Below are positions 3,569-64,000 of a DNA stretch of 64,000 nucleotides, in pieces. Source of the stretch: a bacterium. GTDB taxonomy: Bacteria; Patescibacteriota; Minisyncoccia; Phycocordibacterales; UBA918. Under the pieces are notes generated by a model. That model was not told where the DNA came from and searched no databases. It was given only the letters and a program-made list of their open reading frames with translations. The stretch lies in contig JAYSUD010000008.1 of assembly GCA_043719295.1 (NCBI GenBank), positions 8,216-72,215 of the forward strand, given 5' to 3'. Made by a program: the position numbers and the translations under genes. How positions within the stretch are numbered: position 1 is the stretch's first letter; each line of letters starts with the position of its first letter.

Positions 3569-3600
3569 TGAGCAAACGAGTGAGAAAGTCTAGTAGACTT

Positions 3601-3655
3601 TTGCAAGAGGTTGACTACTATTTTGAAGTATGAAAAATACTGACAACCTGAACAG
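3601..3655 (+). repeat. ~50-nt nested-hairpin module (TTGCAAGAGGTTG-[inner hairpin]-CAACCTGAACAG). Related copies at 26608-26656 and, inverted, 28254-28302.
   Basis: The outer stem AGGTTG/CAACCT and the flanks GCAAG...GAACAG are conserved. The inner hairpin differs between copies. Confidence 0.6.
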
Positions 3656-4089
3656 CTTCTGTAAGAAGTAAGCGACTTTTGCATTTAGCAGAAGCAGGAC
3701 GCTAAGCGTATAAGCTTCCTTGGAGGTCGCTTATACGAAGCGTCTACATAAGATACATATAGTCTCACTGTCGTGATACTTATGTATCTAAACTGCTGGA
3801 CGTCTCTTATATTAGGAGATTATGACTCATACGCATAAATATAAAAAGTAGTTTTTCCATAAAATTAGGTTATAGTACAACTATATCTATAGGACAAAGC
3901 TTGCACGAAAAAATCATAATGTCCTCAGGCTATTGCAGAAGAAGTGAGCTAAAATTAAAAAAACACATAAAACTGCCTTAAGAGGCGGTTTTAGTGCGAC
4001 AGAGCATCATCTGACATATACACAAGCAAAACGTTTAAAGCTGTAGGGTTGAAAATCATATTCCAACTGAGGTAATACGCTACGTTTTC

Positions 4090-11635: not shown

Positions 11636-11788
11636 GATAGATTTACTTATATCTTGTATGTATACAGTATACAACGTTTATTCAAACCTGTCAGACAGTG
11701 CTAAACCATAAACACCATAAGGTTGAAAACCCCACAGTTTTCTGTACAATAGCCCTACTTGAAGTAATTCAAGTATAGATTCTAAAGC

Positions 11789-12116
11789 TCCGGTGTAGCT
11801 CAGCGGTAGAGCAATCGACTGTAACATTGAACAATGTTCAAAATAGCAGCCTTATCGAGAAATTGATATTGCAAACAAGGTGAATTGCTGGAACCCCCAC
11901 GACACAAGTCAGGGCAATCAGCAGCCAAGCTTTTGGAGAAATCCAATTGAAGGTCCAGAGACTATCCCTTCGGGGAGTAGAATGCTCACAAATGCATTCG
12001 AAGCGCCTTGCACCGTCAGTGTAGTAATACAACCGGTGATGATATAGTCCACGCCATACAGTAACGTATGAATAAGTGTAATCGATTGGTCGCAGGTTCG
12101 AATCCTGCCGCCGGAG
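11789..12116 (+). tRNA. tRNA-Asn (anticodon GUU) interrupted by a group I intron in the anticodon loop. No CCA is encoded.
   Basis: Exons tccggtgtagctcagcggtagagcaatcgactgt + taatcgattggtcgcaggttcgaatcctgccgccggag fold into a 72-nt cloverleaf. Acceptor TCCGGTG/CGCCGGA, U8, T-loop TTCGAAT, G73, and a 5-nt variable loop that excludes Tyr. Confidence 0.75.
11823..12078 (+). ncRNA. Group I self-splicing intron (~256 nt) within tRNA-Asn.
   Basis: CCAAGCTTTTGG (P5-like), GTCCAGAGACTA (J6/7-P7) and ATATAGTCC (P7'/J8-7) match the group I consensus. The intron ends in G. Boundaries are good to about 2 nt. Confidence 0.7.
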
Positions 12117-12132
12117 CTTTAGAATTTAGAGA

Positions 12133-12162: not shown

Positions 12163-12184
12163 AGCTCCGGCGGCAGGATTCGAA
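12163..12184 (+). repeat. Perfect inverted copy (22 nt) of the tRNA-Asn 3' end.
   Basis: agctccggcggcaggattcgaa is the exact reverse complement of the tRNA 3' end ttcgaatcctgccgccggagct. Together with the tRNA it makes a ~35-bp inverted repeat enclosing the terminator. Confidence 0.85.
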
Positions 12185-12238
12185 GACCTTGCCTGATATC
12201 TTTTTGAGGTACGAAATAAAATAGTGACAAGGTGTACT

Positions 12239-12268
12239 GGTCGTGTAACGACCGAAATTCCTGCCGCC
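12239..12268 (+). repeat. tRNA-flanking module: hairpin with TGTAA loop, then GAAATTCC, then a direct copy of the tRNA 3' strand.
   Basis: ggtcgtgtaacgacc-gaaattcc-tgccgcc. The tail is complementary to 12170-12182. Homologous modules at 58386-58413, 62436-62462 and 63420-63456. Confidence 0.6.
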
Positions 12269-12306: not shown

Positions 12307-12636
12307 CACATGACCCGTAAAGAAACACGCACCTACGCCGATCGAGCTGAGTATATGAAACTCGCTGTCATTAAACGTCGCAAAAAAGTGCGTGACATGG
12401 CACTTGAATACAAAGGTGGAGTCTGCCAAATCTGTAGATATAGTAAAAGTAAACGGGCACTCTCCTTTCATCACATCAATCCCAAAACAAAAGAATTTGG
12501 TATTTCATACAGAGGCTTTACTCGATCATGGGACAAGACAAAAGCAGAACTCGATAAATGCATTCTGCTTTGCATGAACTGTCATATGGAGATACACGAT
12601 GGAATTACAAAGTTACCAGAACTTTGCATTACCTGA
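12307..12636 (+). CDS. HNH endonuclease (zinc-finger HNH); likely a homing-type endonuclease tied to the adjacent intron-containing tRNA.
   Basis: MTRKETRTYADRAEY...CQICRY...SFHHINPK...CMNCHMEIHDG: HNH motif with CxxC pairs. Start taken at the internal Met after the promoter-like box. Confidence 0.7.
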   Translation, partial: HMTRKETRTYADRAEYMKLAVIKRRKKVRDMALEYKGGVCQICRYSKSKRALSFHHINPKTKEFGISYRGFTRSWDKTKAELDKCILLCMNCHMEIHDGITKLPELCIT

Positions 12637-26401: not shown

Positions 26402-26607
26402 GTGTTTTGTATATATAATTGACAATACAAAAAGCATATACCATCGTATACAAAATGTAAAGTTAACTTTACATTTTATCTGTGGAAAAACTTAGGGGTG
26501 ATAAAATCAGAGGATTTATGAAAACGAGTGAGAAGTGATACAAAATCCACCACAAGAGTATTTCCATTTTTATAGTCGTCTTACGACTCCATAAAAATTA
26601 GGTCACT

Positions 26608-26656
26608 TCGCAAGAGGTTTCCTACTCTTTTGGAAAAAGAGTGAGAACCTGTACAG
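26608..26656 (+). repeat. Nested-hairpin module (same family as 3601-3655 and 28254-28302).
   Basis: tcgcaagAGGTTtcctaCTCTTTTggaAAAAGAGtgagAACCTgtacag. Confidence 0.6.
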
Positions 26657-26708
26657 TTCCTGTAAGGAACAAGAGAGATTAAGAAGTGTGCCGTTTCCAT
26701 AAAACCTG

Positions 26709-27705: not shown

Positions 27706-28191
27706 CTATAAATAACTATCAAAATAGATTGCATGGCAAGTATAGCCACCCACATTCTTCTGCAAATAGTCCTGATGGTAACTTTCAGCAGGCCAAAAAC
27801 GTGTATACGGTTCAAGTGATGTAACAACAGGATTGTCCCAACGTTCACTCTCATTCACTACCTCAATCATCTCCTCTCCAATTTCTTTTTCTTTCTCATC
27901 TTTGTAGAAAATTGCAGAACGATACGAAGTGCCTTTGTCATTTCCCTGTTGATTTAAGGTTGTCGGGTTATGAACCTGGAAAAAGAAATCAAGAATTTGT
28001 TTGTATGAAATTACATTCTCATCATAGGTAACAAGAAGTGCTTCGGCGTGACCTTCATGTGATTCATACGTTGGATTTTCACCTTTGCCACCACTGTATC
28101 CAGCTTCAGTATCAAGAACACCTTTAAGATCACGAAAGAGTTCTTCCAATCCCCAGAAACACCCGCCAGCTATGATTGCTTCTTTTTGCAT
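27706..28191 (-). CDS. msrA: Peptide methionine sulfoxide reductase MsrA.
   Basis: MQKEAIIAGGCFWGLEELF... GCFWG active site. 161 aa. Confidence 0.9.
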   Translation of the reverse strand: MQKEAIIAGGCFWGLEELFRDLKGVLDTEAGYSGGKGENPTYESHEGHAEALLVTYDENVISYKQILDFFFQVHNPTTLNQQGNDKGTSYRSAIFYKDEKEKEIGEEMIEVVNESERWDNPVVTSLEPYTRFWPAESYHQDYLQKNVGGYTCHAIYFDSYL

Positions 28192-28250
28192 AGTTATTAT
28201 TATATTAAGAATTAACTTCTATTCTTTACTATCACCAGATAGCGACTCAG
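28151..28250 (-). repeat. Promoter/5'-CDS unit of msrA (copy 1, functional). Duplicated at 28487-28590 and, diverged, at 28321-28405.
   Basis: ~100 nt (ccccagaaacacccgccagctatgattgcttctttttgcatagttattattatattaagaattaacttctattctttactatca) recur nearly identically 336 nt upstream. Confidence 0.85.
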
Positions 28251-28320
28251 AATCTGTTCAGGTTGTCGCTCTTTTTCCAAAAGAGCAGGCAACCTCTTGC
28301 GAAGTGACATTTAGTCACTT

Positions 28321-28405
28321 CTCACCCCAGAAACATCCCCCTGCAAGTAAGGCTTCTTTTTGCATATAGTCTGATATATAAATTATGTACTTCTATTCTT
28401 ACAGA
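28321..28405 (-). pseudogene. Diverged decoy copy of the msrA start (would encode MQKEALLAGGCFWGEK*).
   Basis: On the minus strand reads ATGCAAAAAGAAGCCTTACTTGCAGGGGGATGTTTCTGGGGTGAGAAGTGA, then a hairpin and the nested-hairpin module. Confidence 0.6.
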
Positions 28406-28486
28406 ATCTGTCCACTCATTGGATTTTTTATTTCACTTCGTTCATAAAAACTCACAATGAGTCTTGCGACAGTCCCCCGGACTGTC

Positions 28487-28590
28487 TCACCCCAGAAACA
28501 CCCGCCAGCTATGATTGCTTCTTTTTGCATAGTTATTATTATATTAAGAATTAACTTCTATTCTTTACTATCAGTAGATAATGACTCAGG
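28487..28590 (-). pseudogene. Near-identical decoy copy of the msrA promoter plus first 14 codons, followed immediately by a hairpin and a U-run terminator.
   Basis: Minus-strand RNA: ...ATGCAAAAAGAAGCAATCATAGCTGGCGGGTGTTTCTGGGGTGAGACAGTCCGGGGGACTGTCGCAAGACTCATTGTGAGTTTTTAT. Confidence 0.7.
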
Positions 28591-28633
28591 ACCTGTCAAT
28601 TTGTCACTATTTTTAAAATAAAGTCACCTGACT

Positions 28634-29248
28634 TTATTTAATTTCTACTTGTACTTCATTACGATTCATCCAAGGTGGTGTCCATGGTGCATTGTATCCT
28701 GCGTACGAAGGTGTACCCACAATCACAACGCCATCTTTTGAAAGTGCATCTTGCAATAGTCTTTGTTTTTCAATTACACGTGATTCAGAACGAAACCAAG
28801 AAAAACGAAGTACCGCTATTTTTTGTGCTGGCACTTCTTTTAGGCTCACTCGTGCATCATTTGGAACAGGGAGTGTTGCCAATGTATATGAAGCTGGCAT
28901 CACAAATGAAATAACACGAGACGATCCTTCTAAACTCGCAACAACAGGGGCTGTCATTGCAATTTTTTCAGATGTCTTTTGAGTAACAGGAGCCGTCATT
29001 GCAATTTTTTCTTGAGCAGTATTGTCTCCAAAAATATATCCTGCAATAATACTAAATCCTTTGTTTAACGATTCGTCGTACGAACCTTCAACAGTGGTCT
29101 CTGCCACAATTCGAGCTTTATATTCCCGCACTTCATACATGCCTTCTTTTTTAAGAACCCCGTACTGTGCCTGTTCAACATTTGACCCAAAGTAACCCCA
29201 CACAGACCAAAGTACTAAAACAAGTACAACAATAATTAAAAATTTCAT
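28634..29248 (-). CDS. SOUL/HBP heme-binding family protein with an N-terminal membrane anchor.
   Basis: YEVREYKARIVAETTVEGSYDESLNKGFSIIAGYIFGDNTAQEKIAMTAPV... is SOUL-domain-like. A second IAMTAPV repeat is present. Confidence 0.5.
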   Translation of the reverse strand: MKFLIIVVLVLVLWSVWGYFGSNVEQAQYGVLKKEGMYEVREYKARIVAETTVEGSYDESLNKGFSIIAGYIFGDNTAQEKIAMTAPVTQKTSEKIAMTAPVVASLEGSSRVISFVMPASYTLATLPVPNDARVSLKEVPAQKIAVLRFSWFRSESRVIEKQRLLQDALSKDGVVIVGTPSYAGYNAPWTPPWMNRNEVQVEIK

Positions 29249-40620: not shown

Positions 40621-40656
40621 AGAAATTCATTGTAACACCTTTAGCTCAACCGTTTG

Positions 40657-40709
40657 CTGCCAGACTTGGACTCGAACCAAGATAACATCCTCCAGAGGGA
40701 TGTGTCCTA
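40657..40709 (-). pseudogene. Partial copy of tRNA-Gln (anticodon arm through 3' end, lacking acceptor 5' and D arm) ~55 nt downstream of the intact gene.
   Basis: Minus strand: ...gtaggacacatccctctggaggatgttatcttggttcgagtccaagtctggcag matches the intact tRNA from the D-loop end to the 3' end. Confidence 0.65.
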
Positions 40710-40767
40710 CAGTCAAATGAGTGAGCGAAACGAGGAAATGGATATTTCTTATTATTTACGTGCTTTG

Positions 40768-40838
40768 CTGCCAGACTTGGACTCGAACCAAGATGATATC
40801 CTCCAGAGGGATACATCCTACCATTAGATGATCTGGCA
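40768..40838 (-). tRNA. tRNA-Gln (anticodon CUG); no encoded CCA.
   Basis: Minus strand tgccagatcatctaatggtaggatgtatccctctggaggatatcatcttggttcgagtccaagtctggcag. Acceptor TGCCAGA/TCTGGCA, anticodon loop CUCUGGA, T-loop TTCGAGT. Confidence 0.7.
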
Positions 40839-40908
40839 GCACAGCACACAAATTATGAAATATTCATTTACTCATTTCCGAACGAAAGCAGATTGTATGG
40901 TTTCCATA

Positions 40909-40926
40909 CCATTAGACGATCTAGCA
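40909..40926 (-). repeat. Short imperfect copy of the tRNA-Gln 5' end, upstream of the intact gene.
   Basis: ccattagacgatctagca versus ccattagatgatctggca (2 mismatches). Confidence 0.35.
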
Positions 40927-45028: not shown

Positions 45029-45304
45029 TTACTCTTTTTTCTTGCGTGTCGCCTTTCGTGCTTTTGTCCCCATGACAAAACTCAACACTTGTGAGACGAG
45101 ACTTCCTTCGGTTACATACGCACGTAATTGTGATACATCTTCGGCAATCACCTCACTTCCTTCATCTATCCGAGCGACAATGCGTCGAATCGACTTGAGA
45201 ATTTTGATTACCTGATATATCGCAACGCATAGTAACACTGTAAACAGTACTACAGACGCACTTGTTATTGCGAAGAAAATATTTGTTTGTAATATCTCAC
45301 TCAT
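45029..45304 (-). CDS. DUF948-like small membrane-anchored protein.
   Basis: N-terminal TM then a coiled coil. 91 aa. Confidence 0.35.
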   Translation of the reverse strand: MSEILQTNIFFAITSASVVLFTVLLCVAIYQVIKILKSIRRIVARIDEGSEVIAEDVSQLRAYVTEGSLVSQVLSFVMGTKARKATRKKKE

Positions 45305-45470
45305 AAGTACAGTATACCTTACAGGTACTGTCTACTCACTTGTTTTTTATCCACTCCGTTCCCAAAAGACTCAGTGAGTCTTGCGAAATGCTTCAAGCAT
45401 TTCTCACCATGCACCAGTAGCGAACATGTTGCTATGTGTGGATGAATACTCTGAAAGTGATACAGAATAA

Positions 45471-54227: not shown

Positions 54228-54300
54228 ACTGGTCTTTCCAGCAAGTGCTATTTAACCATACTAACTGTTTTTGTCAACTTTTTGCATCATTGTATATGTG

Positions 54301-54592
54301 TATGCGGAGGTCTATTGTTATTGGAGAGTTCCAGCAGTTTCTGCTGAGCCTAGTGTAGGACACTGCTAACGCTGAGGTCCTACACTTGTCTCTAGGTCAG
54401 CAGCAGAAACTGTAAACAAAGTTCGCCATTGTCGCTTGCGTATATGCGGAGTCATATTGTTGTTGGAGAGTTCCAGCAGTTTTCGCTGAGTAACATTCAA
54501 AGCACAGCTAACGCTGAGGCTTTGAATGTTACTCTGGGTCAGCGCAAAAACTGGGTGAAAAGCGAATACTTGGAGCTTCGCAAGACTCATTG
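54301..54592 (-). repeat. Two tandem copies (C 54301-54440, D 54441-54592) of the hairpin repeat element in inverted orientation; a third partial unit at ~54640-54675.
   Basis: Both units share the tatatgcggag...gagagttccagcag leader and the ctcagcgttagc(a/t)gt loop (rc). Their stems differ but stay complementary (covariation). Confidence 0.7.
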
Positions 54593-54724
54593 AGGTTCTA
54601 TGGAACGAAGTGGAGTAGAATCCAATGAGTGGACAGCTTCTGTAAGAAGAGGAGTTCGCCATTCTCGCTTGCGCTCTGTGGCTCACTCCTTGCTAACAAA
54701 CCGTTACGGCCATACAATGAATTT

Positions 54725-56339: not shown

Positions 56340-57920
56340 CTACAACCCAAAGTTCTTCATTGAATACAAGTCATCGTCATCATCTTTTTTTGCTGGAGTT
56401 GGTTCTTTAGTTTCTGTGACAACAGCTTGTTGTATAGGTTCACTTTGCACAACTTCTTGCATAACGATTACGGGTTCAATTTTTTGTTCGAAGTTTGTAG
56501 CACGTGGTGTTAAGAAATCAGTGCCTTCAAAAGAAGGAGCTTCTGCTTTCGCTTCATTGTTCAATTTTTGCATATTTGCCTTTAGAGCATCTTGCATACC
56601 ATCTCCGTTTTGATCTGTCCCGTTTGAGCTTTGAGGTTGCATAACTGCATTTGAAACAACGGGATACGTTGTATACGAAGTACCGTACGCCTCTTCTTCA
56701 ACAACAGGACGTTCATAGGCTACATACCCACTTGGTGGTACTTTCATATCTTCTCGTTCTTGCATCTGTGCCTGTGTCTCACTTCCTTCTTGGTAACTGG
56801 TATGAACTTCATTTGTATCAAGTGCATGGCGTTGTGTACCATCTCTTGATGGTTCTTGTGTGGCGTTAGAAAGTCCTGCAAATTCTGCATTCTCTGCAAT
56901 CACATTCTCAAGCTCCTCCCTAACTGCTTGCTCTGCCTCAAGTGCGTCTTCAACCCGAATCTCATCTTCTACGCGCTCAGGCTGTGGTTCTACCAACTCA
57001 AGTACGGTAGCATCTGTAATCTTTTCAAGTTCTTGGATATGGGTAGTGCTACTTTCTTCTTCACCTCCCGCCATATGGAAATCAGTAATCTTTCCTTGCG
57101 ACTTCATAATTGCCAACAGTTTCTGAAGGTCTTCATCAGAGAAGTAATCAATAGTGAGCTTTCCCCCAAAGTCAGTTTTAAGAATTTGCACACGCGTGCC
57201 TAATGTATCGGTAAACTCTCGTTCAATCTCAATCAAGACTGCATCCGTGTTTGCCCAGTTCTTCTTTCGCACTTTGTCTGATGCAATTTTTCGAACAATG
57301 CGTTCAACTTCACGTACTGAAAGTTTTTTCAAAAGAATCTCACGGAAGATAACGTCCTGCTCTTCAGGTTTATCATTAAGCATCAACAGCGTCCGCGCGT
57401 GACCCTCGCTAATGTCAGCAGTTCGAAGCGATGAGAGCATATAGTCAGGCAATCCCAAAAGACGAATGGTATTTGAAACGTACTCACGACTTCGTCCTAC
57501 TTTTTTTGCAACAGCTGCATGCGGAAGATTAAACACGTCAGCTAACTGTCGAAACGCAAGAGCTCTGTCAACAGCGTTTAAGTCCTCTCGCTGTAAGTTT
57601 TCAATAATAGCAAGTTCAAGTTTTTCCTGCTCAGAGTTTTCACCCGTTCGGATAATAACAGGGACTTGCTCCATGCCTGCAAGGCGTGATGCACGTAACC
57701 GACGTTCACCAGCGATAAGTTCGTATTGTGTGAAAAAAGCACCGTCTTTGGTTTGTATTTCTTTTCGTGTAACGGTCAGAGGTTGCAGAATCCCGTACAT
57801 GCGGATAGACTCCGACAATTCTTTGAGTTTTGATTCATCAAATTCCCGCCGTGGTTGAAACGGATTGGGAACGATTTTTTCTACCTCCACCCAAAAAATT
57901 GAATCTCCTTGAAAAGCCAT
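56340..57920 (-). CDS. parB: ParB-like partition protein with a long low-complexity acidic C-terminal extension.
   Basis: ParB/Srx box GILQPLTVT...YELIAGERRLRASRLAG...VPVII, HTH region, then ~250 aa of E/Q/T-rich disordered sequence. Confidence 0.7.
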   Translation of the reverse strand: MAFQGDSIFWVEVEKIVPNPFQPRREFDESKLKELSESIRMYGILQPLTVTRKEIQTKDGAFFTQYELIAGERRLRASRLAGMEQVPVIIRTGENSEQEKLELAIIENLQREDLNAVDRALAFRQLADVFNLPHAAVAKKVGRSREYVSNTIRLLGLPDYMLSSLRTADISEGHARTLLMLNDKPEEQDVIFREILLKKLSVREVERIVRKIASDKVRKKNWANTDAVLIEIEREFTDTLGTRVQILKTDFGGKLTIDYFSDEDLQKLLAIMKSQGKITDFHMAGGEEESSTTHIQELEKITDATVLELVEPQPERVEDEIRVEDALEAEQAVREELENVIAENAEFAGLSNATQEPSRDGTQRHALDTNEVHTSYQEGSETQAQMQEREDMKVPPSGYVAYERPVVEEEAYGTSYTTYPVVSNAVMQPQSSNGTDQNGDGMQDALKANMQKLNNEAKAEAPSFEGTDFLTPRATNFEQKIEPVIVMQEVVQSEPIQQAVVTETKEPTPAKKDDDDDLYSMKNFGL

Positions 57921-58054
57921 AACAAAAACACATAACCACGAAAAAATGCCTCTCATTTCTTCGCTTTTCCTCCTAACTCCCCCATTCTACCACAGCAAAG
58001 TTTTTGAGTGGCTGTTTATAACTTTCAAAGAATCTGTTACACTTGCCCTTGCCT

Positions 58055-58136
58055 GCCTCGGTGGCGGAATTGGTATACGCGCACGACTCAAAATCGTGTG
58101 CCGCAAGGCTTGAGGGTTCGACCCCCTCCCGAGGCA
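58055..58136 (+). tRNA. tRNA-Leu (anticodon CAA), type II with a long variable arm; no CCA.
   Basis: gcctcggtggcggaattggtatacgcgcacgactcaaaatcgtgtgccgcaaggcttgagggttcgaccccctcccgaggca. Acceptor GCCTCGG/CCGAGGC, loop CUCAAAA. Confidence 0.75.
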
Positions 58137-58145
58137 CAATAAAAC

Positions 58146-58167
58146 AGCACCTTTTGGTGCTTTTTTA
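58146..58167 (+). terminator. Rho-independent terminator after tRNA-Leu.
   Basis: agcaccttttggtgcttttttat. Confidence 0.7.
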
Positions 58168-58317
58168 TGTGACGAGGAGAAAGCAAACTTCTTTGCTTTT
58201 GTGAGGGTGTCGAAAGACGGAACGATGCCGAAGGCAAGTGAGCCGGGGTCGCAGAAATTTCTGAAAGAAATTATCTGTGACCGCCCACCGAGGAACAAGT
58301 GACTGAATGTCACTTGT

Positions 58318-58413
58318 GGGAGGGGGTCGAAAAGGTTGCCTGATATTTTGTGACGTAAGGAAACAAAATATCGATAACCTGTACTGAACATGTAATGTTC
58401 GATTCCCCTCGAC
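58318..58413 (+). repeat. tRNA-Leu flanking modules: inverted copy of the tRNA T-loop/acceptor (58318-58331) followed by the TGTAA-hairpin module (58386-58413).
   Basis: gggagggggtcgaa = rc of ttcgaccccctccc. Then gaacatgtaatgttc-gattcc-cctcgac. Confidence 0.55.
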
Positions 58414-58500
58414 TTTCCCCAATTTTTCTATAAGCTACTGTACAGACCAGTCCTTTGTAAGCAGGAGCTGGTTTCCTCACAATTTAACCGAGCACTGGAG

Positions 58501-59256
58501 GTGCAAATGCCCATATTCCTTACTTCCAAAGACCTAGGTTGTGGTATCTGGCTCGCATTGGACATGGACAACTTCGAGGAAGCTCTCGACTTGACCGGTC
58601 AAACCGGCGAATATATTGATGGTGTCAAAGTTCATGGCATCGTTGAAGACGCTATGAAGGAAAAACTTGGCAAGCTCCGTAAAGTTGGTGCAAAAAAAAT
58701 TTGGCTCGACCGAAAGGTCGATGACACCCCAGGGACCGTCAAGATCGTTTCGAGGAACGCTCACGACTGTGGTGCCGACAGAATGACCGTCATGGCATCT
58801 GCTGGCATTGAGGCAATGATGACTGCCATCAATCATGGTCCTGCCGAAATTGTCGCCGTCACCGACCTCACTTCACTTTCAAAAGCCGAAATTGGAATGT
58901 CGCGTGGAATGCCGGCCGACGCCTCTGTGCTTCAAAAAGCACAATGGGCAAAGCTTGCTGGAGTTAAGCTTGTTGTCTGTTCAGTTGAGGAGGTGGCTGA
59001 ACTGGACAAACGCCGAGGATATTCCAGACTGGCAGATTGCCATCTGGAACTGAATGGAATGAAGTTTACAGTCCCAGGCAGCAGAACCATCACGGACATT
59101 CTGAAAGGACAAGTGCGGAGCAACACCGCAATGGCGACCCTTGCTGCCGGAGCCGATGAACTGGTGCTCGGGAGCGAAGTTTGGGAAGCCAGACAGCCCT
59201 TCGATGCACTTCAACAGGTCTATCATTCAATTCTAGAATACATGAACAAACAATAA
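58501..59256 (+). CDS. Orotidine 5'-phosphate decarboxylase-family (PyrF/KGPDC-like) protein, in a GC-rich island.
   Basis: IWLALDMDNFEEALDLTGQ...KIWLDRKVDDTPGTV resembles the OMPDC-family (ALD..., D-K-D-P-T) motifs. GC ~55% versus ~40% for the window. Confidence 0.45.
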   Translation: MQMPIFLTSKDLGCGIWLALDMDNFEEALDLTGQTGEYIDGVKVHGIVEDAMKEKLGKLRKVGAKKIWLDRKVDDTPGTVKIVSRNAHDCGADRMTVMASAGIEAMMTAINHGPAEIVAVTDLTSLSKAEIGMSRGMPADASVLQKAQWAKLAGVKLVVCSVEEVAELDKRRGYSRLADCHLELNGMKFTVPGSRTITDILKGQVRSNTAMATLAAGADELVLGSEVWEARQPFDALQQVYHSILEYMNKQ

Positions 59257-59487
59257 AACCCTCCGGCGAGATTCTGCATACATTCACGAAGCTGAATGTA
59301 TCCAAAATCTCGCCGGACACCTCAAACCGTCGGTTTTGGAAAGTATACACATCGTATATTTCCCCAAGCCGACGGTTTTTTCTTTTCTTGTATTTTTTAT
59401 ATTTTAGAGTAGTCTACAATTCATCACCAAACCGTCACACATGTGACTTTATCGGGAGGATTGTACCTTGAGAGCACTTACAGAAGT

Positions 59488-60160
59488 TATGGCTGAGGCT
59501 CATACCGTCGCTGAAGTTTTTACCGACAAACACTTTATCTACACGGGAGGAGATCACGGCGATGGATACGTGAACTACAGACCACTTGGGGCTGTGGGGT
59601 CTGAGTTCCTTCTTCGCGAGGTATGTGTGCATCTGGTCCGCAATATGCTCATTGGAGTTCCTGTTGAGAAATACAGAAACATTGTCATCATTGGCCCAGA
59701 AACGATGGGTGCAAAAATGGTAAAGCAAATCGGTTGCACCTTGGAAGATGAGCTTCCTTATATCATCCATACGAGGACTTTTGTCAAAGACCCCAACAAG
59801 GCAAAAAGCTTTTTGTGGAATGCTGATCCGGAAAAACTGCTCGATGAAGATTCTCTGGTTTTGTGGATTGACGATCTCCTGAACGGAGGGACGACGTTTG
59901 AAGCAACCGCACCGATGATTCACTACTACGATGCACAGGTGTACGGCATCGGGGTTATCGGCGACCGCAGTGGACTTACTCCAGAAAAGCTTAGCGTTCG
60001 CCGTATCACATCGCTTGAGCAGTTTAGCCTCAAGAGATACCCTGAGGCAGAGTGCCCTTCTTGCCGCGACCACATCCCAATTGTTGATAATCTTGGACAC
60101 GGTGCGAAGTTCAAGGCAACTCATCCAAGCTATCAAGGTGGATTCATTCCTGCCAGATAG
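59488..60160 (+). CDS. Type I phosphoribosyltransferase (orotate PRTase-like), in the GC-rich island.
   Basis: PRPP-binding motif LVLWIDDLLNGGTTF. Start may be TTG at 59468. Confidence 0.5.
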
Positions 60161-60239
60161 CATGCATGACCTTCAACGGGCGGACTATACACTCTCAGAT
60201 GAGAATACATTGTCAGCCCGTTGGAGAAATACGACGCCG

Positions 60240-60285
60240 TTACCCTTCATCGGATACGGCGTTTCTTTTTTTCTAAAATTCAACA
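60240..60285 (+). terminator. Rho-independent terminator closing the GC-rich island.
   Basis: acgacgccgttacccttcatcggatacggcgtttcttttttt. Confidence 0.6.
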
Positions 60286-60525
60286 ACGAGAATTTATAAT
60301 AACAATACCAGTAAGGAAATTAGATTCTTCACGTCATCACGAATAACATGTACATACGCACACAAAATTATTGGATGATGAAGACCTTTACCTCACGTAC
60401 GCCTTTTTGGCGACTGGTTTTGTTTCGGTATATCATCTAACTCCCCTTTTTTTGAAATAACACAACAGAACCAGTCTCTAAGACTGGTTCTGTTCTTTTT
60501 GGTTCTTTAAATAAGGAGGAAGCCT

Positions 60526-60828
60526 ATGTCCGAAATTTGTTTTGTTCCTGTAATTGGGTATGTTCCAAGTATGCATCCAAATCAACAACTTGGATATGAA
60601 ATCTGGGTAAGTAATCCACAACGTGCAGTACCGTACATCTTCAAAACAACACTGCAAGAATATAACAAACAACAAGGTGGTAATCTGTTTGGACAAGAGT
60701 GCATGATATATGGTTTATATCTTCATGTATCTCCCTTAGCTTTGTACGCAACAAAGGAACAGGCCTTGTTTGCACTCGGGGTTTTTATTCCTACAAAAAC
60801 AATGTACGATCTTGATGCCGCGCGTTAG
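60526..60828 (+). CDS. Hypothetical small protein.
   Basis: 100 aa, no motif. Preceded by a hairpin/T-run at 60465-60500. Confidence 0.35.
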   Translation: MSEICFVPVIGYVPSMHPNQQLGYEIWVSNPQRAVPYIFKTTLQEYNKQQGGNLFGQECMIYGLYLHVSPLALYATKEQALFALGVFIPTKTMYDLDAAR

Positions 60829-60870
60829 CGCGGCATTTCTTTTTCCTGTTTCTTTGCTACACTTCCCAAA

Positions 60871-61797
60871 ATGGAATCACACAAAAAACCTAAAGTTATC
60901 GTTATAGTCGGCCCAACCGCTTCCGGAAAAACGGCGCTTTCTTTAATGCTTGCAAAACAATTAAAGGGCGAAGTGATTAACGCTGATTCACGCCAAGTAT
61001 ACAAAAGACTTGATGTTGGTACCGAGAAAATTACGTATGAAGAAATGGAAGGAATCCCTCACCACTTGTTAAGTATCGTCGACATCAACACAGTCTACAC
61101 CGCCATGGATTTTAAAAAAGATGCAGAAACTGCAATTACAGAAATTACAGAACGTGGCAATATCCCCATTATTGCAGGGGGTACTTTTTTCTACATTGAT
61201 ACGTTGTTAGGAAAGATGGGTACTTCTCCTGTAGAACCAAATTGGGAACTTCGGGAAGAACTGGAAAAATATTCGACAGAAGAATTGTTCACGTTATTAC
61301 AGAAAAAAGATCCACGGCGTGGAGATACCATTGAAAAGGATAATAAACGACGTCTCATTCGTGCACTTGAAATTGTCGATAAGCTTCAAAGTGTCCCCGC
61401 ACAAAACCCAAATGCAGAATGCCCATACGATGTCCTTACAATCGGTATTTCTGTTGAAAAAGAAGTCCTCAAAGAACGTCTTCGCATACGTGCGCAAGAC
61501 GCACTCACAAGAGGACTCATTGAAGAAACACAATCGCTCCTAGCCTGTGGAGTTTCAAAGGAACGGCTTTTAGAAATCGGCCTGCAGTACAAAGTTGTCA
61601 TGGAATACATTGACGGGATAATCACCGATACAGAACTAATCCAAAAACTTGGAGAAAAGAACTGGCAGTACGCAAAGCGCCAACTGCTCTGGTTAAAACG
61701 AAATGAGGATATTGTCTGGTTTAAACGCGAAGACACAGATGCTCTATCTGGAGTTGTATCAGAATTTCTCAAAAACTATCCAAAATCAATTCGTTGA
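60871..61797 (+). CDS. miaA: tRNA dimethylallyltransferase.
   Basis: VIVIVGPTASGKTALS...DSRQVYK...GGTFFY: MiaA P-loop and conserved blocks. Confidence 0.9.
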   Translation: MESHKKPKVIVIVGPTASGKTALSLMLAKQLKGEVINADSRQVYKRLDVGTEKITYEEMEGIPHHLLSIVDINTVYTAMDFKKDAETAITEITERGNIPIIAGGTFFYIDTLLGKMGTSPVEPNWELREELEKYSTEELFTLLQKKDPRRGDTIEKDNKRRLIRALEIVDKLQSVPAQNPNAECPYDVLTIGISVEKEVLKERLRIRAQDALTRGLIEETQSLLACGVSKERLLEIGLQYKVVMEYIDGIITDTELIQKLGEKNWQYAKRQLLWLKRNEDIVWFKREDTDALSGVVSEFLKNYPKSIR

Positions 61798-61855
61798 TTT
61801 TTAACCTATTTTCACATACACTGTTGAACACCAAGAAATTGGTACAAAGAACTAC

Positions 61856-61987
61856 GGGCCTATAGTTCTATGGAAAGAAATCAAAGATTTCTTCCTTCCA
61901 GCACTCACTCGGAAATGTAAGCGAGCTTCCATTTCTCTCGTGTCGTTTGGAAGGAGAATTTCCGGTTTCCAAAACCGTAGATCGAGG
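61856..61987 (+). pseudogene. Partial tandem copy of tRNA-Trp (5' end through T-stem 5' strand) carrying an ~83-nt structured insertion in the D-loop; lacks T-loop and 3' acceptor.
   Basis: gggcctatagttctatgg + [aaagaaatcaaagatttcttcc...ggaagg] + agaatttccggtttccaaaaccgtagatcgagg. The intact gene follows 18 nt later. Confidence 0.6.
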
Positions 61988-62004
61988 ACTTGTAGAAAAT
62001 ATTG

Positions 62005-62075
62005 GGGCCTATAGTTCAATGGTAGAATTCCGGTTTCCAAAACCGTAGATCGAGGTTCGAATCCTCGTGGGCTCG
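62005..62075 (+). tRNA. tRNA-Trp (anticodon CCA); no CCA.
   Basis: gggcctatagttcaatggtagaattccggtttccaaaaccgtagatcgaggttcgaatcctcgtgggctcg. Acceptor with two G-U pairs, loop UUCCAAA. Confidence 0.7.
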
Positions 62076-62462
62076 CTCGAGTAAAGAAAAAACATAATGC
62101 TGAAGCATTATGTTTTTTCTTTAGAACCTGACCTGCGTCAGGTTCGTGCTCGAGCGAGAGACGGAGACATGTCGCCTGCGACAGTCGAGTCGGGGTCGAG
62201 AGTACTTATGATTTGAGGAGGTACGACGATAATCATTAGTAACTCGTGACCGCAGTGAGCCCACGAGGCATAGCTTTTTGAAAAAATGCGTAGTGCGATT
62301 CGAAGCCCGATTGAGATAATTTTGGAGCGAAGCGAACAAAATTATCCAATTGGGATACTGGTCGTGTAAGCAAAGCTTTCTTTCACTGCATTCCTATTAC
62401 AAATAAAAATGAACTTTTCTTTGAATACTCATTTGTGAAAGTAACGACCGAAATTCCTCGTT
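62076..62462 (+). repeat. Highly structured tRNA-Trp 3' flank: nested stems pairing with the tRNA 3' end, then the TGTAA-hairpin/GAAATTCC module.
   Basis: gctcgctcgag (62071-81) pairs ctcgagcgag (62151-60). gagcccacgagg (62257-68) is the exact complement of the tRNA 3' cctcgtgggctc. Module gtgaaagtaacgaccgaaattcctcg at 62436-62462. Confidence 0.55.
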
Positions 62463-62466
62463 GTCT

Positions 62467-62859
62467 CTAACACTCACCAATCTCATTCCACTGTCCAAAT
62501 CCAGATTCAGCACTCACCAGTCCTTTCATAACAGTATCAATAATCAACCAACCTGCAATAATGATTACAAACCCAATAATGATATTACTTACCATCCCTT
62601 TTGCTTTCTCCATTGCTCCACTATTGCCTTGAGAGATAACTAACTGAAATCCGGCATACATCACCATCATCACCGCTGCTAAAGTCAGAAGTACAAACAA
62701 AAAATCAAAAACACGATCAACCATCTGTACGAGAGTACAAAAATCACAATTAGGTTGACCTGCGTTGCCACAGGTAACCAGTCCGTCAGCGGCAAACGTA
62801 ACGTGAGCCAAAAGACTTGTGACAAAAAATATCAAGGAAAATAGCAATACAAACTTCAT
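62467..62859 (-). CDS. Small secreted/membrane protein resembling TrbC/VirB2-type (type IV secretion) pilins.
   Basis: Signal peptide, Cys-containing segment, then ...MMVMYAGFQLVISQGNSGAMEKAKGMVSNIIIGFVIIIAGWLIID...: hydrophobic helix - polar loop - hydrophobic helix layout typical of VirB2/TrbC/PrgF pilins. Confidence 0.35.
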   Translation of the reverse strand: MKFVLLFSLIFFVTSLLAHVTFAADGLVTCGNAGQPNCDFCTLVQMVDRVFDFLFVLLTLAAVMMVMYAGFQLVISQGNSGAMEKAKGMVSNIIIGFVIIIAGWLIIDTVMKGLVSAESGFGQWNEIGEC

Positions 62860-62981
62860 ACGTAATACAATAATACTAGCACAGCACTACTTCAAATTTG
62901 ACACCCCTTTCCTATCCCCTCCTAATATGATAGTTTATAAGCCTTGTGGTCTCACTAAAATTTGACTCAAGAGTTGCTAAA

Positions 62982-62996
62982 TACAACTATGCGTCG
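62982..62996 (+). repeat. 15-nt copy of the tRNA-Tyr 5' end, ~170 nt upstream of the intact gene.
   Basis: gcgtcggtggcagag is identical to the first 15 nt of the tRNA, followed by the hairpin gatgaaaagtgaatagtttcacttttcatc. Confidence 0.55.
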
Positions 62997-63165
62997 GTGG
63001 CAGAGCGGATGAAAAGTGAATAGTTTCACTTTTCATCTGGTCTACGAGCGAATGCGAGTAGATTGGTCGCTGTGAGTAATTGCGAAGCTTTTATGAACAG
63101 ACCAAAGGAGGAAGACGAGTCCAACGCTCAGAAACATAAAAACGTTCTTGAGCAAGCATAACATT

Positions 63166-63248
63166 GCGTCGGTGGCAGAGTGGTCAATTGCAAGAGACTG
63201 TAAATCTCTCGGCTTCGGCCTACGAAGGTTCAAATCCCTCCCGGCGCA
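63166..63248 (+). tRNA. tRNA-Tyr (anticodon GUA), type II with a long variable arm; no CCA.
   Basis: gcgtcggtggcagagtggtcaattgcaagagactgtaaatctctcggcttcggcctacgaaggttcaaatccctcccggcgca. Acceptor GCGTCGG/CCGGCGC, loop CUGUAAA, A73. Confidence 0.75.
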
Positions 63249-63260
63249 CAAAATACCAAA

Positions 63261-63285
63261 ACCCAAAGCGGATGCTTTGGGTTTT
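63261..63285 (+). terminator. Rho-independent terminator after tRNA-Tyr.
   Basis: acccaaagcggatgctttgggttttgtt. Confidence 0.7.
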
Positions 63286-63295
63286 GTTGTATTTT

Positions 63296-63456
63296 GGCGT
63301 CGGGAGGGATTTGCACCACAAGAGTATTTCCATTTTTATATTCCCTTCAGTCATTAAAAATTAAGTCAAGACCTTTTGAGATAGATTTGACTGAAAGGAA
63401 AATATACCCAAAAGGTGTACCGGTCATGTAATGACCAAAATTCCCTCCCGGCGCAC
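63296..63456 (+). repeat. tRNA-Tyr flanking modules: inverted 3'-end copy (63296-63313), a 27-nt block shared with 26546-26572, and the TGTAA-hairpin module ending in a direct copy of the tRNA 3' strand (63420-63456).
   Basis: ggcgtcgggagggatttg is close to rc of caaatccctcccggcgc. caccacaagagtatttccatttttata is repeated at 26546. ccggtcatgtaatgacc-aaaattcc-ctcccggcgcac. Confidence 0.6.
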
Positions 63457-63497
63457 TTTTTAAAAACGAGCGTCTACTTTTGTAGGTGCCGTTTTTA

Positions 63498-63878
63498 TTA
63501 GTGTTTAATTAATTCCCAAGTATTGTATAAAACTGGATATGATCCATCTATAAACCAAGCAAGCAAAACTATACTAACTAAAACTAGCGAAATGCCAAAT
63601 ACCATCTTATCTACTTCTCTAGGTGAATTTTTAAGAGATTTGAAACTTAAAATAAAAGCCAGAAGATAACTCGCGTGGATAATAAATATTCCAAAATTAA
63701 CAGATAACTGCATCCATGCTAAATGGGCAGTAGTTGGAACAGAAAAGAATGTCAGTATTTTTGAAAATACACCATTAAAAGTATCTATTGACGCCAATCC
63801 GGAAATTGTCACTATGATTCCAGCGAAAAACAAAACAAACGATAATTTATATTTTTTCATGCAATAAAATTTTAGCAC
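63498..63878 (-). CDS. Hypothetical membrane protein (4 TM).
   Basis: 126 aa, hydrophobic, no motif. Confidence 0.4.
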   Translation of the reverse strand: MLKFYCMKKYKLSFVLFFAGIIVTISGLASIDTFNGVFSKILTFFSVPTTAHLAWMQLSVNFGIFIIHASYLLAFILSFKSLKNSPREVDKMVFGISLVLVSIVLLAWFIDGSYPVLYNTWELIKH

Positions 63879-64000
63879 AAAGTTGTCTAATCAACTCCAG
63901 CTCGGCGCACAAGTCCCACCACTTGACCATCTCTCATTAAACGTTAAGCTTAGTTGGTTAACTGCACAGCTGTCACAAGGGAGGACCCCAGCATGCGTTT

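Follow-up and report, generated by a model that had tools for sequence, protein, structure and literature searches.

A tRNA-Trp gene nested within the halves of an older copy of itself, and its possible rebuilding by small hairpin elements in Patescibacteria

Why should a tRNA gene be preceded by a broken copy of itself and followed by stems that pair with its own 3′ end? This question is raised by a tRNA-Trp locus in a 64,000-nt stretch of patescibacterial DNA, which was analysed as a whole and is called the window here. Our analysis establishes that the tRNA-Trp gene is intact and is enclosed by the remains of an older copy, broken in two, and that this older copy is split by hairpin-rich modules, designated A, B and C. 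The gene and the remains of the older copy are arranged as follows.

61856..61873, plus strand: displaced 5′ fragment, nt 1–18 of the older tRNA-Trp (17/18 identical to 62005–62022)
61874..61954, plus strand: module C, structured insert of 81 nt that interrupts the D loop of the older gene (from its fold and its homology to locus L026)
61955..61987, plus strand: continuation of the old copy, nt 21–53 (from identity to the intact gene)
61988..62004, plus strand: spacer or leader of 17 nt separating the intact tRNA from the old copy; the inserted segment begins here on its left side (from reading of the sequence)
62005..62075, plus strand: intact tRNA-Trp, anticodon CCA, no encoded CCA end (ARAGORN; Rfam RF00005)
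62450..62467, plus strand: tail, displaced 3′ fragment with nt 57–72 of the old tRNA-Trp (GAA-AT-TCCTCGTTGTCTC; compared with 62061–62075)

ARAGORN places the 3′ end of the intact gene at 62075/76, and Rfam family RF00005 recognizes 62005–62075 as a tRNA (63.4 bits, E = 2e-11, threshold 29). The upstream copy (61856–61987) is called as a tRNA by neither ARAGORN nor Rfam, and no second tRNA-Trp was called. This self-copy, reported in a preliminary description of the locus, is real. Its first part spans the acceptor 5′ strand, the D-stem 5′ strand and the D loop as far as GG; its second part contains the D-stem 3′ strand, the anticodon arm, the variable region and the T-stem 5′ strand, with 28 nt (61960–61987 against 62028–62055) 100% identical to the intact gene and an additional T at 61960. 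As had been described, the T loop is not reached: nt 53 is the last nucleotide copied. A fragment of nt 1–18 is also located 5′ of tRNA-Trp in L026, L034, L041 and L074, and the old copy is shorter in relatives, ending at nt 33 in L026 and at nt 29 in L074. A promoter-like sequence, TTGGTA-16-TATAGT (61839–61866), uses nt 6–11 of the pseudo-copy.

The tail at 62450–62467 repeats tRNA nt 57–72, with the AT typical of the family inserted after nt 59 and two G-to-T changes. On comparison of their sequences, 61856–61987 (nt 1–53) and 62450–62467 (nt 57–72) are shown to be the parts of one older tRNA-Trp gene, interrupted at the T loop. The interrupting segment, 61988–62449, is 462 nt long; in it, a short leader precedes the complete tRNA-Trp, and a terminator-like hairpin, module B and module A come after. 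The same final layout could be obtained by tandem duplication, then insertion.

The preliminary description had offered three readings of the locus: an intron-containing or permuted tRNA remnant, a ribozyme-like processing element, or an att-site scar. The first two found no support. If the upstream copy were a tRNA-Trp gene with an intron, or a split or permuted one, and were still expressed, or if the modules were self-cleaving ribozymes processing its precursor, an insert that is structured and closed by the D stem would be in keeping, and the tRNA-Asn gene in the window does carry a genuine group I intron (80 bits in Rfam). However, the complete 5′ and 3′ exons that should flank an intron are absent; the T loop and 3′ end lie 462 nt off, beyond another tRNA, and after the insert the two relatives keep even less of the gene. 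An intact tRNA-Trp begins 17 nt downstream of the copy, and the order of the parts (5′ fragment, intact gene, 3′ fragment) is not that of a permuted or split tRNA. No intron, ribozyme or riboswitch family of Rfam matched at E ≤ 1 (Rfam 15 was used for the covariance-model searches), and inspection revealed no hammerhead, twister or HDV-type core, the junctions being TCGAAGA, TGTAC and TGTAA. In Nanoarchaeum, Thermoproteales and red-alga nucleomorphs, and in bacterial tRNAs with group I introns in the anticodon loop, tRNA pieces are likewise parted by structured inserts with break points in loops; here, in contrast, the gene exists in complete form, the tRNA can be made without the pieces, and the D-loop and T-loop positions and the sizes of the inserts fit no bacterial intron class. 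We know of no bacterial class of self-splicing intron in a tRNA D loop. We give this explanation hardly any credence.

The D-loop insert had been described as an 83-nt structured element; the structure is present, but its length is 81 nt (61874–61954). Module C is composed of hairpin 1, a closing helix and an inner GGAAATG/CATTTC hairpin, and it is closed by a helix of tRNA sequence, namely the D stem. The pseudo-tRNA and its insert fold with z = −2.6 to −2.7 against shuffled controls, and 61874–61954 has no Rfam match even at E ≤ 1, so that no self-splicing intron model recognizes it. In L026 module C is 91.6% identical, and it recurs 5′ of tRNA-Trp in five lineages, with compensatory changes at 10 of the 29 predicted pairs. 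Downstream of the intact gene, the following features lead to the tail.

62072..62081, plus strand: last 4 nt of the tRNA and CTCGAG trailer, 5′ strand of the helix tying module B to the tRNA end (10/10 complementary to 62149–62158)
62082..62123, plus strand: perfect 20-bp hairpin, A/T-flanked, terminator-like (inverted repeat I1, 100%; in every fold)
62124..62145, plus strand: second small hairpin (GAACCTGAC...GTCAGGTTC; from folds)
62149..62158, plus strand: module B left arm, antisense of tRNA nt 70–73 and trailer (inverted repeat)
62159..62251, plus strand: module B core (AGACGGAG...GTCGAGTCGGGGTCGAGAG-hairpin-CTCGTGACC; homologous cores elsewhere)
62254..62268, plus strand: module A outer left arm, antisense of tRNA nt 61–72, the T-stem 3′ and acceptor 3′ strands (14/15 complementary to 62063–62077)
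62269..62296, plus strand: 28-nt spacer or imperfect hairpin splitting the left arm (homologous spacer in L038)
62297..62304, plus strand: module A inner left arm GATTCGAA, antisense of T-loop nt 54–61 (inverted repeat I3)
62305..62354, plus strand: module A long hairpin Pa/Pb (covariance-model match 62293–62382, 39 bits, E = 3e-7)
62355..62369, plus strand: junction (A)TAC, then Pc 5′ strand (TGGTCG) and TGTAA loop (from sequence)
62370..62444, plus strand: 75-nt insertion within the Pc loop (CTTTCAC/GTGAAAG inverted ends; flanks TGTAA and AGTAA)
62445..62450, plus strand: Pc hairpin 3′ strand (CGACCG; from folds and sequence)

The helix reported earlier as gctcgctcgag/ctcgagcgag is confirmed by the perfect pairing of 62072–62081 with 62149–62158, and it is kept with different trailer sequences in L007, L026, L038 and L041. 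The terminator-like hairpin (62082–62123) was missed by a simple terminator scan, because its stem has too few G-C pairs for the scan. Homologues of the module B core are found 3′ of tRNA-Trp in L007, L026, L038, L041, L061 and L074, and also 3′ of tRNA-Leu at 58215 in the window. In module A, a 12-nt helix noted earlier is contained within the longer pairing of the outer arm; in L038 an orthologous outer arm is likewise followed by the 28-nt spacer. Inverted repeat I3 (62049–62063 against 62297–62311, 13/15) had not been listed, and an inner arm antisense to the T loop is a general feature of module A. The long hairpin Pa covaries across 102 module A copies. The TGTAA hairpin of the preliminary description exists, with its 5′ strand and loop at 62359–62369, but it is not intact: the 75-nt insertion, which folds independently inside Pc and has no further copy in the window or in 74 loci, splits it.

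The helices that close modules A and B consist of tRNA 3′-end sequence, copied in inverted or direct orientation. Folding is much better than in shuffled controls for 62054–62160 (z = −9.2) and 62005–62465 (z = −8.3); with z = −2.7 for the upstream copy, all three folds are better than their shuffles, and the outcome that had been named as refuting the structures, folding no better than in controls, did not occur. In the minimum-energy fold of 62005–62465, the T arm and the acceptor 3′ strand of the tRNA are predicted to be drawn into the downstream helices, as had been proposed.

The main rival to the explanation that we favour below starts from such folds. The modules would be host-functional parts of the pre-tRNA, C as a 5′ leader and B and A as 3′ trailers pairing with the tRNA 3′ end, with a part to play in the processing of tRNAs, their quality control or the regulation of their maturation where the set of RNases is reduced; tail and tRNA would compete for pairing with the antisense arm in the manner of an attenuator. 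The stability of the read-through RNA fold, the promoter-like sequence overlapping the pseudo-copy, the compensatory changes in module C and the maintenance of the module B helix with different sequences all argue for this, whereas the strong terminator-like hairpin standing between the tRNA and the arms argues against it. Structured external spacers of pre-tRNAs, such as the leuZ 3′ ETS that acts as an sRNA sponge, are likewise conserved sequences directly 3′ of a tRNA and in the same direction; the modules differ in lying after a terminator-like hairpin, in being complementary to the tRNA itself and in occurring also away from tRNAs. Orthologous modules C and B at tRNA-Trp in at least five lineages, with their compensatory changes, look like the result of long-term constraint rather than of recent mobility.

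Comparison with the Tyr, Leu and Asn loci of the window, recommended earlier as a route to a common model, proved correct and decisive. Sister elements are present at all three.

12165..12268, plus strand: element after tRNA-Asn, with a 20-nt antisense arm, module A core and tail (covariance model, 92 bits)
58203..58413, plus strand: elements after tRNA-Leu, module B, then module A and tail (covariance model; sequence comparison)
63297..63455, plus strand: element after tRNA-Tyr, with an antisense arm, module A core and tail (covariance model; sequence comparison)

The tail of the tRNA-Tyr element is identical to tRNA nt 57–73 save for the AT insertion. The 64-kb window contains 9–10 module A matches in total, and partial copies of tRNA-Gln, tRNA-Tyr and the protein gene msrA (5′ copies, flanked by the same cores) are bounded by related modules. 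In the window, the genes beside the copies are miaA, pyrF, one for a T4SS pilin and others of that sort.

Module A matched 72 loci of Patescibacteria, with 102 covariance-model matches in 550 kb. The core is about 92 nt long and lies beside at least 12 tRNA identities in the 72 loci. In 42 of the 72 a same-strand tRNA is located 90–665 nt 5′ of it and has its nt 57–73 repeated by the tail, which ends at the discriminator. Of the 102 matches, 59 lie 3′ of a tRNA on their own strand; in no case is the only nearby tRNA on the opposite strand. The junction motifs TCGAAGA, TGTAC and the TGTAA loop are invariant at dozens of unrelated loci and genomes. After nt 59 the tail carries a conserved AT bulge or a 14-nt mini-hairpin, which suggests that it is part of a functional structure and not only a remnant. 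The core phylogeny suggests that the cores share common descent and may move between loci. A short-read contig breaks at the modules. Keyword searches of the literature found no description of these elements, and no Rfam family matched any module (at gathering thresholds in the window and nine loci; at E ≤ 1 in 57500–64000); only tRNAs, the one group I intron and chance miRNA-type matches on long hairpins were recovered.

The helices of module A covary. Pairs occupy 96% of their cells, double changes occur at 13 of 13 pairs, compensatory cells number 247 compared with 58 in shuffles, and G-U pairs make up about 1.2% of cells in a tally from the covariation table. Tests for selection at the RNA level found no asymmetry between G-U and A-C mismatches or between the stabilities of the plus and minus strands. 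The low G-U content and the equal folding of both strands point to palindromes at the DNA level. The arms mirror the adjacent tRNA: acceptor arms form 279 of 300 Watson-Crick pairs, and the antisense copies, near-perfect by Watson-Crick pairing, run 2 nt into the trailer. Among the 93 tRNAs in loci that were chosen for having a module, 55 carry an antisense arm, and the arm is still complementary to the working tRNA in 13 of 17 loci where the tail is truncated. On the 5′ side, 19 of 91 tRNAs have a copy of their own nt 1–16 within 400 nt upstream (that in L032 is probably a separate neighbouring tRNA-Arg); most of these copies end in the D loop, with a structured insert next.

The counts for the arms, together with the strict orientation and position relative to tRNAs, add to the case for a host function in tRNA maturation. 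However, G-U enrichment and strand asymmetry are absent, the cores are also present inside partial msrA copies and in arrays away from tRNAs, and module copies are nested, truncated, reordered and interrupted, with fragments that come from different alleles; moreover, module B of L038 pairs with a displaced tail instead of the working tRNA. We regard a host function as the origin of this arrangement as rather unlikely.

Template switching is known to create and maintain hairpins, and the arms might have arisen without any mobile element if template-switch mutations at the terminator hairpin, extending the stem by copying the opposite flank, made the inverted copies and tandem duplication made the direct ones. 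Near-perfect Watson-Crick arms that show no G-U bias and reach 2 nt into the trailer, in palindromes centred on terminator hairpins, fit this, but it leaves unexplained why homologous cores carry invariant junction motifs in dozens of loci and genomes that are unrelated, and why fragments come from foreign alleles, and we consider it very improbable. The arm contains no complement of CCA except where the gene encodes CCA (L028 and L032). It therefore copies the gene and not the mature tRNA, and a primer-binding site of retroviral type was rejected.

Three loci outside the window reveal how modules sit in tRNA genes. L038 is a natural filled site, in which module A and a new copy of nt 54–73 separate the tRNA body from an older 3′ end, which retains its own trailer, terminator and module B, whereas the order in the window is B, then A. 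In L061 the tRNA 3′ end is followed by a minimal element of 50 nt and then by 21 nt copied from nt 54–74, which differ at three acceptor positions and represent another allele. L007 has a pseudo-tRNA-Leu with module A directly in its T loop, then a duplicated leader and an intact tRNA-Leu. Displaced fragments are of other alleles than the intact gene for tRNA-Gln, the L061 tail, the L007 5′ fragment and msrA copy G2.

Our preferred explanation, held with slightly less than even confidence, is that the modules are insertion elements of ancient origin, non-coding and hairpin-forming, which restore the gene they target and are moved by an enzyme acting in trans. With the same reserve, we suggest that the present locus is a tRNA-Trp gene rebuilt by insertions of such small hairpin elements specific to Patescibacteria. 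By site-specific recombination the elements would be inserted into the D loop or T loop of tRNA genes, each bringing a replacement for the displaced gene end and a spacer bearing a promoter or terminator, so that one working tRNA would always remain. The enzyme would probably recognize folded hairpin DNA, and both strands retain the helices as strict Watson-Crick palindromes. Once inserted, the elements may persist for long periods, their stems and tRNA complementarity being kept by selection or by palindrome correction during replication. We count in favour of insertion the presence of both halves of the old gene with break points at nt 53 and nt 57, the general layout at module A loci, the upstream copies of tRNA nt 1–16, the filled site and the arrangements in L061 and L007, the foreign-allele fragments, the msrA copies, the high copy number, and the covarying helices with their scarcity of G-U pairs and equal folding on both strands. 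Against it we count that no recombinase or transposase adjoins any copy; moreover, a simple hopping element does not account for arms whose match to the adjacent tRNA extends over about 20 nt. The signs of long-term constraint at tRNA-Trp, the conserved bulge or mini-hairpin in the tail, and the alternative route by tandem duplication also weigh against it.

Among ORFs within 1.5 kb of the 72 loci no recombinase recurs, and clustering of the neighbouring ORFs gave only syntenic housekeeping genes. Strain variants, sought by exact protein, yielded one 4-kb contig identical to the window and none for the pilin or msrA, and close relatives yielded neither circular nor empty-site sequences. These searches bear also on the third earlier reading, the att-site scar, which is the closest of the three. 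P4-type integrases and tRNA-linked repeats have as their classic attL/attR signature a direct repeat of the tRNA 3′ end located 3′ of the gene, and the displaced 5′ and 3′ pieces here do flank inserted DNA, with a repeat that begins in the T loop and ends at the discriminator. Phages or integrative islands would have integrated at the T loop and D loop of tRNA-Trp and later been deleted, leaving att-type direct repeats and element-end sequence beside attR. What fits poorly is that the scars would be passive. No integrase, phage or island genes are located nearby, the module A pattern has no match in 2.9 million viral contigs (IMG/VR), which leaves a phage origin unsupported, and one integrase specificity does not explain a core beside at least 12 tRNA identities. 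The core helices covary, and the arms match each tRNA and are inverted as well as direct copies. Passive scars are quite improbable.

Unlikely, but in keeping with the arms, is an undescribed system of Patescibacteria beside many tRNA genes, in which the tRNA-matched arms are a built-in address. In one version, self-templated, hairpin-guided recombination would find its target in any tRNA gene through the universal sequences of the D loop and T loop, and would duplicate the paired 17–21 nt; in the other, RNA domains would pair with their own tRNA 3′ end and control maturation in reduced genomes.

Transfer RNA genes are classic landing sites of mobile DNA, and here the landing is miniaturized and generalized: one core of about 92 nt accompanies a dozen or more tRNA identities across many Patescibacteria, and the working gene is always preserved. 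The origin of the target-matched arm is a testable question, with guide-like recognition, template switching and gene conversion as candidates, and the distribution of the modules offers a route to the trans-acting enzyme through phylogenetic profiling. In practice, the modules break short-read assemblies of CPR genomes and create pseudo-tRNA fragments and the spurious miRNA-type matches on long hairpins. If transcribed and functional, they would add to tRNA biology a layer shared across the whole lineage, a bacterial radiation of very large size.

Several known systems resemble the modules in part. Insertion in the T arm is shared with P4-type tyrosine-integrase elements that target tRNA genes (T-loop sublocation), their non-autonomous derivatives and the 178-bp repeats after E. 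coli tyrT; such integrative elements also supply a new tRNA 3′ end, leave the old one downstream as a direct repeat, and build arrays by repeated events with the newest unit nearest the tRNA. The modules, however, are only 50–460 nt long and lack an integrase, use one core for at least 12 tRNA identities, add an inverted copy of the tRNA 3′ end, have a mirror-image D-loop class and possess covarying core helices. Integron attC sites and the attP(+) hairpin of CTX phage are likewise imperfect hairpins with a variable apical part that conserve structure over sequence, have a conserved extrahelical bulge (AT after nt 59 in the modules), depend on a recombinase in trans, as the modules would, and form ordered arrays beside a fixed target. 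In contrast to these, the 'cargo' of a module is a tRNA end and a terminator, and its arm sequence is copied from the target gene; the GTTRRRY/RYYYAAC core of attC is replaced by the three junction motifs, no intI-type integrase was seen among ORFs around the 72 loci, and the modules do not qualify as attC sites.

REP and REPIN sequences, PATEs derived from IS200/IS605, and MITEs such as Correia elements share with the modules a high copy number, a non-coding, hairpin-forming nature, a position at gene ends, strict Watson-Crick stems and broken short-read assemblies. The ends of the modules, however, are not constant, their arms follow the local tRNA, and they sit inside gene-fragment duplications that restore the target; no TnpA gene was seen, nor any RAYT-like ORF in 8-kb loci. 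We rejected a MITE, since the terminal inverted repeats vary between copies and the flanking repeats are 14–21 nt of tRNA sequence, and also a TnpB/IscB (IS605) omega RNA with the tail as guide, since no tnpB- or iscB-like ORF is adjacent and the tail is interrupted after nt 59 by AT or the 14-nt hairpin. TIGR-Tas arrays consist of alternating 8–12-nt repeats and spacers of about 9 nt beside a Nop-domain gene (PMC12045711), an architecture different from the present unit with its long hairpins. A kink-turn at the Pa/Pb junction, recognized only in some variants, was discarded. By eye, TGTAC-N-GGTCATGTAATGACC resembles Xer/dif sites.

An old tRNA-Trp gene lies in two halves around the intact one, with nucleotides 1-53 at 61856-61987 and nucleotides 57-72 at 62450-62467. 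The sequence between them (61988-62449) is inserted DNA, consisting of a leader, the intact tRNA, hairpins and two conserved hairpin-forming cores (module B, then module A), and a third core, module C, forms an insert of its own, also structured, within the D loop of the old 5' half. The 3' half, or tail, carries the usual AT insertion and two G-to-T changes relative to tRNA nt 57-72. The features of the locus are:

61856-61873, plus strand: old copy, tRNA nt 1-18 (identity 17/18)
61874-61954, plus strand: insert between the old-copy pieces (module C), 81 nt
61955-61987, plus strand: old copy, tRNA nt 21-53 (28 nt at 100% identity, with an extra T upstream of the identical block)
62005-62075, plus strand: intact tRNA-Trp(CCA) (ARAGORN; Rfam 63.4 bits)
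62082-62123, plus strand: perfect 20-bp hairpin downstream of tRNA-Trp
62072-62081 with 62149-62158: inverted repeat pair (10/10)
62063-62077 with 62254-62268: inverted repeat pair (14/15)
62049-62063 with 62297-62311: inverted repeat pair (13/15)
62370-62444, plus strand: 75-nt insertion inside the TGTAA loop of module A, with CTTTCAC/GTGAAAG inverted ends and TGTAA and AGTAA at its borders

The preliminary description of an old tRNA copy upstream, a structured insert and downstream pairing with the tRNA 3' end is confirmed apart from minor points: the insert measures 81 rather than 83 nt, the downstream helices are joined by a third (the 13/15 pair), and the TGTAA hairpin is present but split by the 75-nt insertion, of which no second copy was found in 74 loci or elsewhere in the window. 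Folding is far more stable than in shuffled controls, with z = -2.7 for the old copy plus insert, -9.2 for 62054-62160 and -8.3 for 62005-62465; in the last fold, the tRNA loses its T arm and acceptor 3' strand to the downstream antisense segments.

Module C and the 5' fragment also occur upstream of tRNA-Trp in L026/L075, L034, L041 and L074 (such handles denote loci of the comparison set, mostly from Patescibacteria and mostly matched by the module A pattern). Compensatory changes back all three helices of module C, at 10 of 29 predicted pairs. Module C is absent from L007, a locus with the same miaA-tRNA-Trp gene order as the window. A promoter-like TTGGTA-16-TATAGT lies at 61839-61866 (plus strand), its -10 hexamer being nt 6-11 of the displaced 5' fragment. 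This role could explain the retention of the fragment, but the corresponding -35 boxes look poor in L026 and L074.

Comparison with the tRNA-Asn, tRNA-Leu and tRNA-Tyr loci of the window, for which a common model had been considered, reveals a shared design: a terminator-like hairpin, an antisense arm (T loop, T stem and acceptor 3' strand of the same tRNA in reverse complement), a conserved core and a tail that directly copies this tRNA from nt 57 on. Module A consists of TCGAAGA, a long hairpin (Pa/Pb), TGTAC and a short hairpin (Pc) whose loop is TGTAA; module B, a second core downstream of tRNA-Leu and tRNA-Trp, reads AGACGGAG...GTCGGGGTCG...GTGACC. The 3' end of tRNA-Tyr and its downstream antisense copy form a long hairpin (63224-63321) that gives spurious sub-threshold matches to miRNA families in Rfam. 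Nucleotides 1-18 of tRNA-Tyr are also copied 175 nt upstream (62991-63008), followed by a hairpin-rich 157-nt spacer.

When the 21-nt pattern TGTACNGGTCRTGTAAYGACC was searched against species-representative genomes, 72 stretches matched, with about four expected by chance by our own estimate. Nearly all are in Patescibacteria MAGs (Paceibacteria, Kaiserbacteria, Nomurabacteria and MAGs labelled Saccharibacteria), and none was found among 2.9 million viral contigs. Of the 72 loci, 42 have a same-strand tRNA, of at least 12 identities in total, that ends 90-665 nt upstream (with one exception, no more than 320 nt away). The tail repeats nt 57-73 of this neighbour, up to the discriminator, and is usually interrupted after nt 59 by AT, AC or a 14-nt mini-hairpin. 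At several of the remaining loci ARAGORN missed the tRNA because it contains a group I intron. The tRNA-Asn gene of the window was likewise missed by ARAGORN:

11787-12117, plus strand: tRNA-Asn(GTT) with a group I intron in the anticodon loop (Rfam 80 bits at 11828-12071)
11787-11822 and 12079-12117, plus strand: its exons, which join to a clean tRNA-Asn(GTT)

In L004, L016 and L024, too, module A lies downstream of a tRNA with a similar intron. About 40 nt past the tail of the tRNA-Asn element, a 108-aa ORF (12310-12636, plus strand) encodes an HNH endonuclease domain (Pfam E = 3e-5); its product may be a free-standing homing endonuclease associated with the modules or with the intron.

A covariance model of module A, built from 43 cores and run on 550 kb, detected 102 copies, with a same-strand tRNA upstream in 59 and 14 at contig ends; none had only an opposite-strand tRNA nearby. 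It finds 9-10 copies in the window. No Rfam family matched any module, and a keyword literature search, incomplete in coverage and hence no proof of novelty, returned no description of these elements. L001, the only public contig with the exact miaA protein, is identical to window 58379-62454 (4076 nt), and both its ends lie inside module A copies. Module A repeats fragment short-read assemblies of such genomes.

The order of parts in other genomes points to insertion. In L038, module A follows tRNA-Trp; next come nt 54-73 copied in full, a trailer and terminator belonging to this copy, and finally module B, which pairs with the displaced copy and not with the working tRNA. Module A with a fresh 3' end therefore entered between the body of the tRNA and an earlier 3' end already bearing module B. 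The window has module B before module A, and the split left arm of its module A, including a 28-nt spacer, is orthologous to that of L038. In L061, a 50-nt minimal element separates the tRNA-Leu 3' end from a 21-nt copy of nt 54-74, which is another allele because three acceptor positions differ. L007 has a pseudo-tRNA-Leu with module A directly in its T loop, then a repeated leader and an intact tRNA-Leu; the 5' strand of the pseudo-tRNA represents the same old allele as implied by the L061 tail. A copy of nt 1-16 lies within 400 nt upstream of 19 of 91 tRNAs (one, in L032, is probably a separate neighbouring tRNA-Arg), and most such copies end in the D loop, where a structured insert follows. 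Nested or tandem arrangements also occur at tRNA-Gln and msrA in the window:

40907-40926, minus strand: tRNA-Gln 5' fragment, nt 1-20, of a different allele
40767-40838, minus strand: intact tRNA-Gln
40655-40710, minus strand: tRNA-Gln 3' fragment, nt 21-72, of a different allele
27706-28191, minus strand: intact msrA
28200-28640, minus strand: tandem units upstream of msrA, each a module, leader and the first 41 nt of msrA (MQKEAIIAGGCFWG)

The intact tRNA-Gln is nested between both fragments, whose allele has compensatory differences in the anticodon stem. The spacers, 66 and 55 nt long, are in part inverted repeats and have a GGAAATG/CATTTCC hairpin in common with module C. The msrA copies break between TTCTGGGG and TGAGA, and the middle one comes from another allele, differing at 8 of 41 positions. 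The recurring logic is that the displaced gene end adjoins the core, and a spacer with expression signals adjoins the restored gene.

Insertion elements are our first-ranked reading, held tentatively and at somewhat less than even confidence. No recombinase was found near any copy, and no close relative yielded an empty site. Ranked second, and rather improbable, are pre-tRNA domains functional for the host. Lower still come scars of ordinary integrases, an intron or split tRNA or ribozyme, and an origin by template switching alone. The antisense arms make 279 of 300 possible Watson-Crick pairs with tRNA nt 66-75, reaching 2 nt into the trailer, and where the tail is truncated or diverged (17 loci), the arm is still complementary in 13. 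Module B at tRNA-Trp pairs through its left arm with the trailer and the preceding nt 70-73. Each genome has a different trailer (CTCGAG, CAGAGGTAC, CCACCG, CAAATAAT...), and the arm varies to match. This tracking of the working tRNA, together with the fact that modules C and B have long been conserved at orthologous positions, fits either host-functional leader and trailer domains or persistent selfish DNA with stems kept by palindrome correction.

Helices Pa and Pc show strong covariation: they are paired in 96% of cells, with both-side changes in 13 of 13 pairs and 247 compensatory cells versus 58 in shuffles, in an alignment fitted to the model, which favours pairing. By our own tally, G-U pairs make up about 1.2% of cells and are rarer than other mismatches; both strands fold equally well (G-U pairs, 31 versus 30), and arm/tRNA mismatches are A-C (8) about as often as G-U (7). 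The low G-U content, strand symmetry and A-C frequency are marks of DNA-level palindromes and not of RNA selected on one strand. Recurrent loop motifs, CTGGGAG-type N-Y-GGG-R-N or AACTGCTT, occur in the variable hairpin that separates the two parts of the antisense arm, and GTAC is repeated in the TGTAC junction, mini-hairpin loops and several Pb loops (both in L006, L017, L028, L053, L058, L062 and others). These motifs may serve protein binding or loop-loop contacts.

A further kind of module, type N, is not associated with tRNAs, and has the order GGTGAGA, hairpin, CGCAAGA, Pa/Pb, TGNAC and Pc with TGTAA. Its copies in the window are:

54290-54700, plus strand: type N module
45304-45393, minus strand: type N module
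26500-26680, plus strand: type N module
3570-3690, plus strand: type N module

The array upstream of relA contains repeated GTTCGCCATTNTCGCTTGCG. Multi-module arrays of this kind, ending in AAATTCGCCATTGTCG, are found in L029, L033, L050, L056 and L066, and could represent a cluster of repeats or else a large non-coding RNA.
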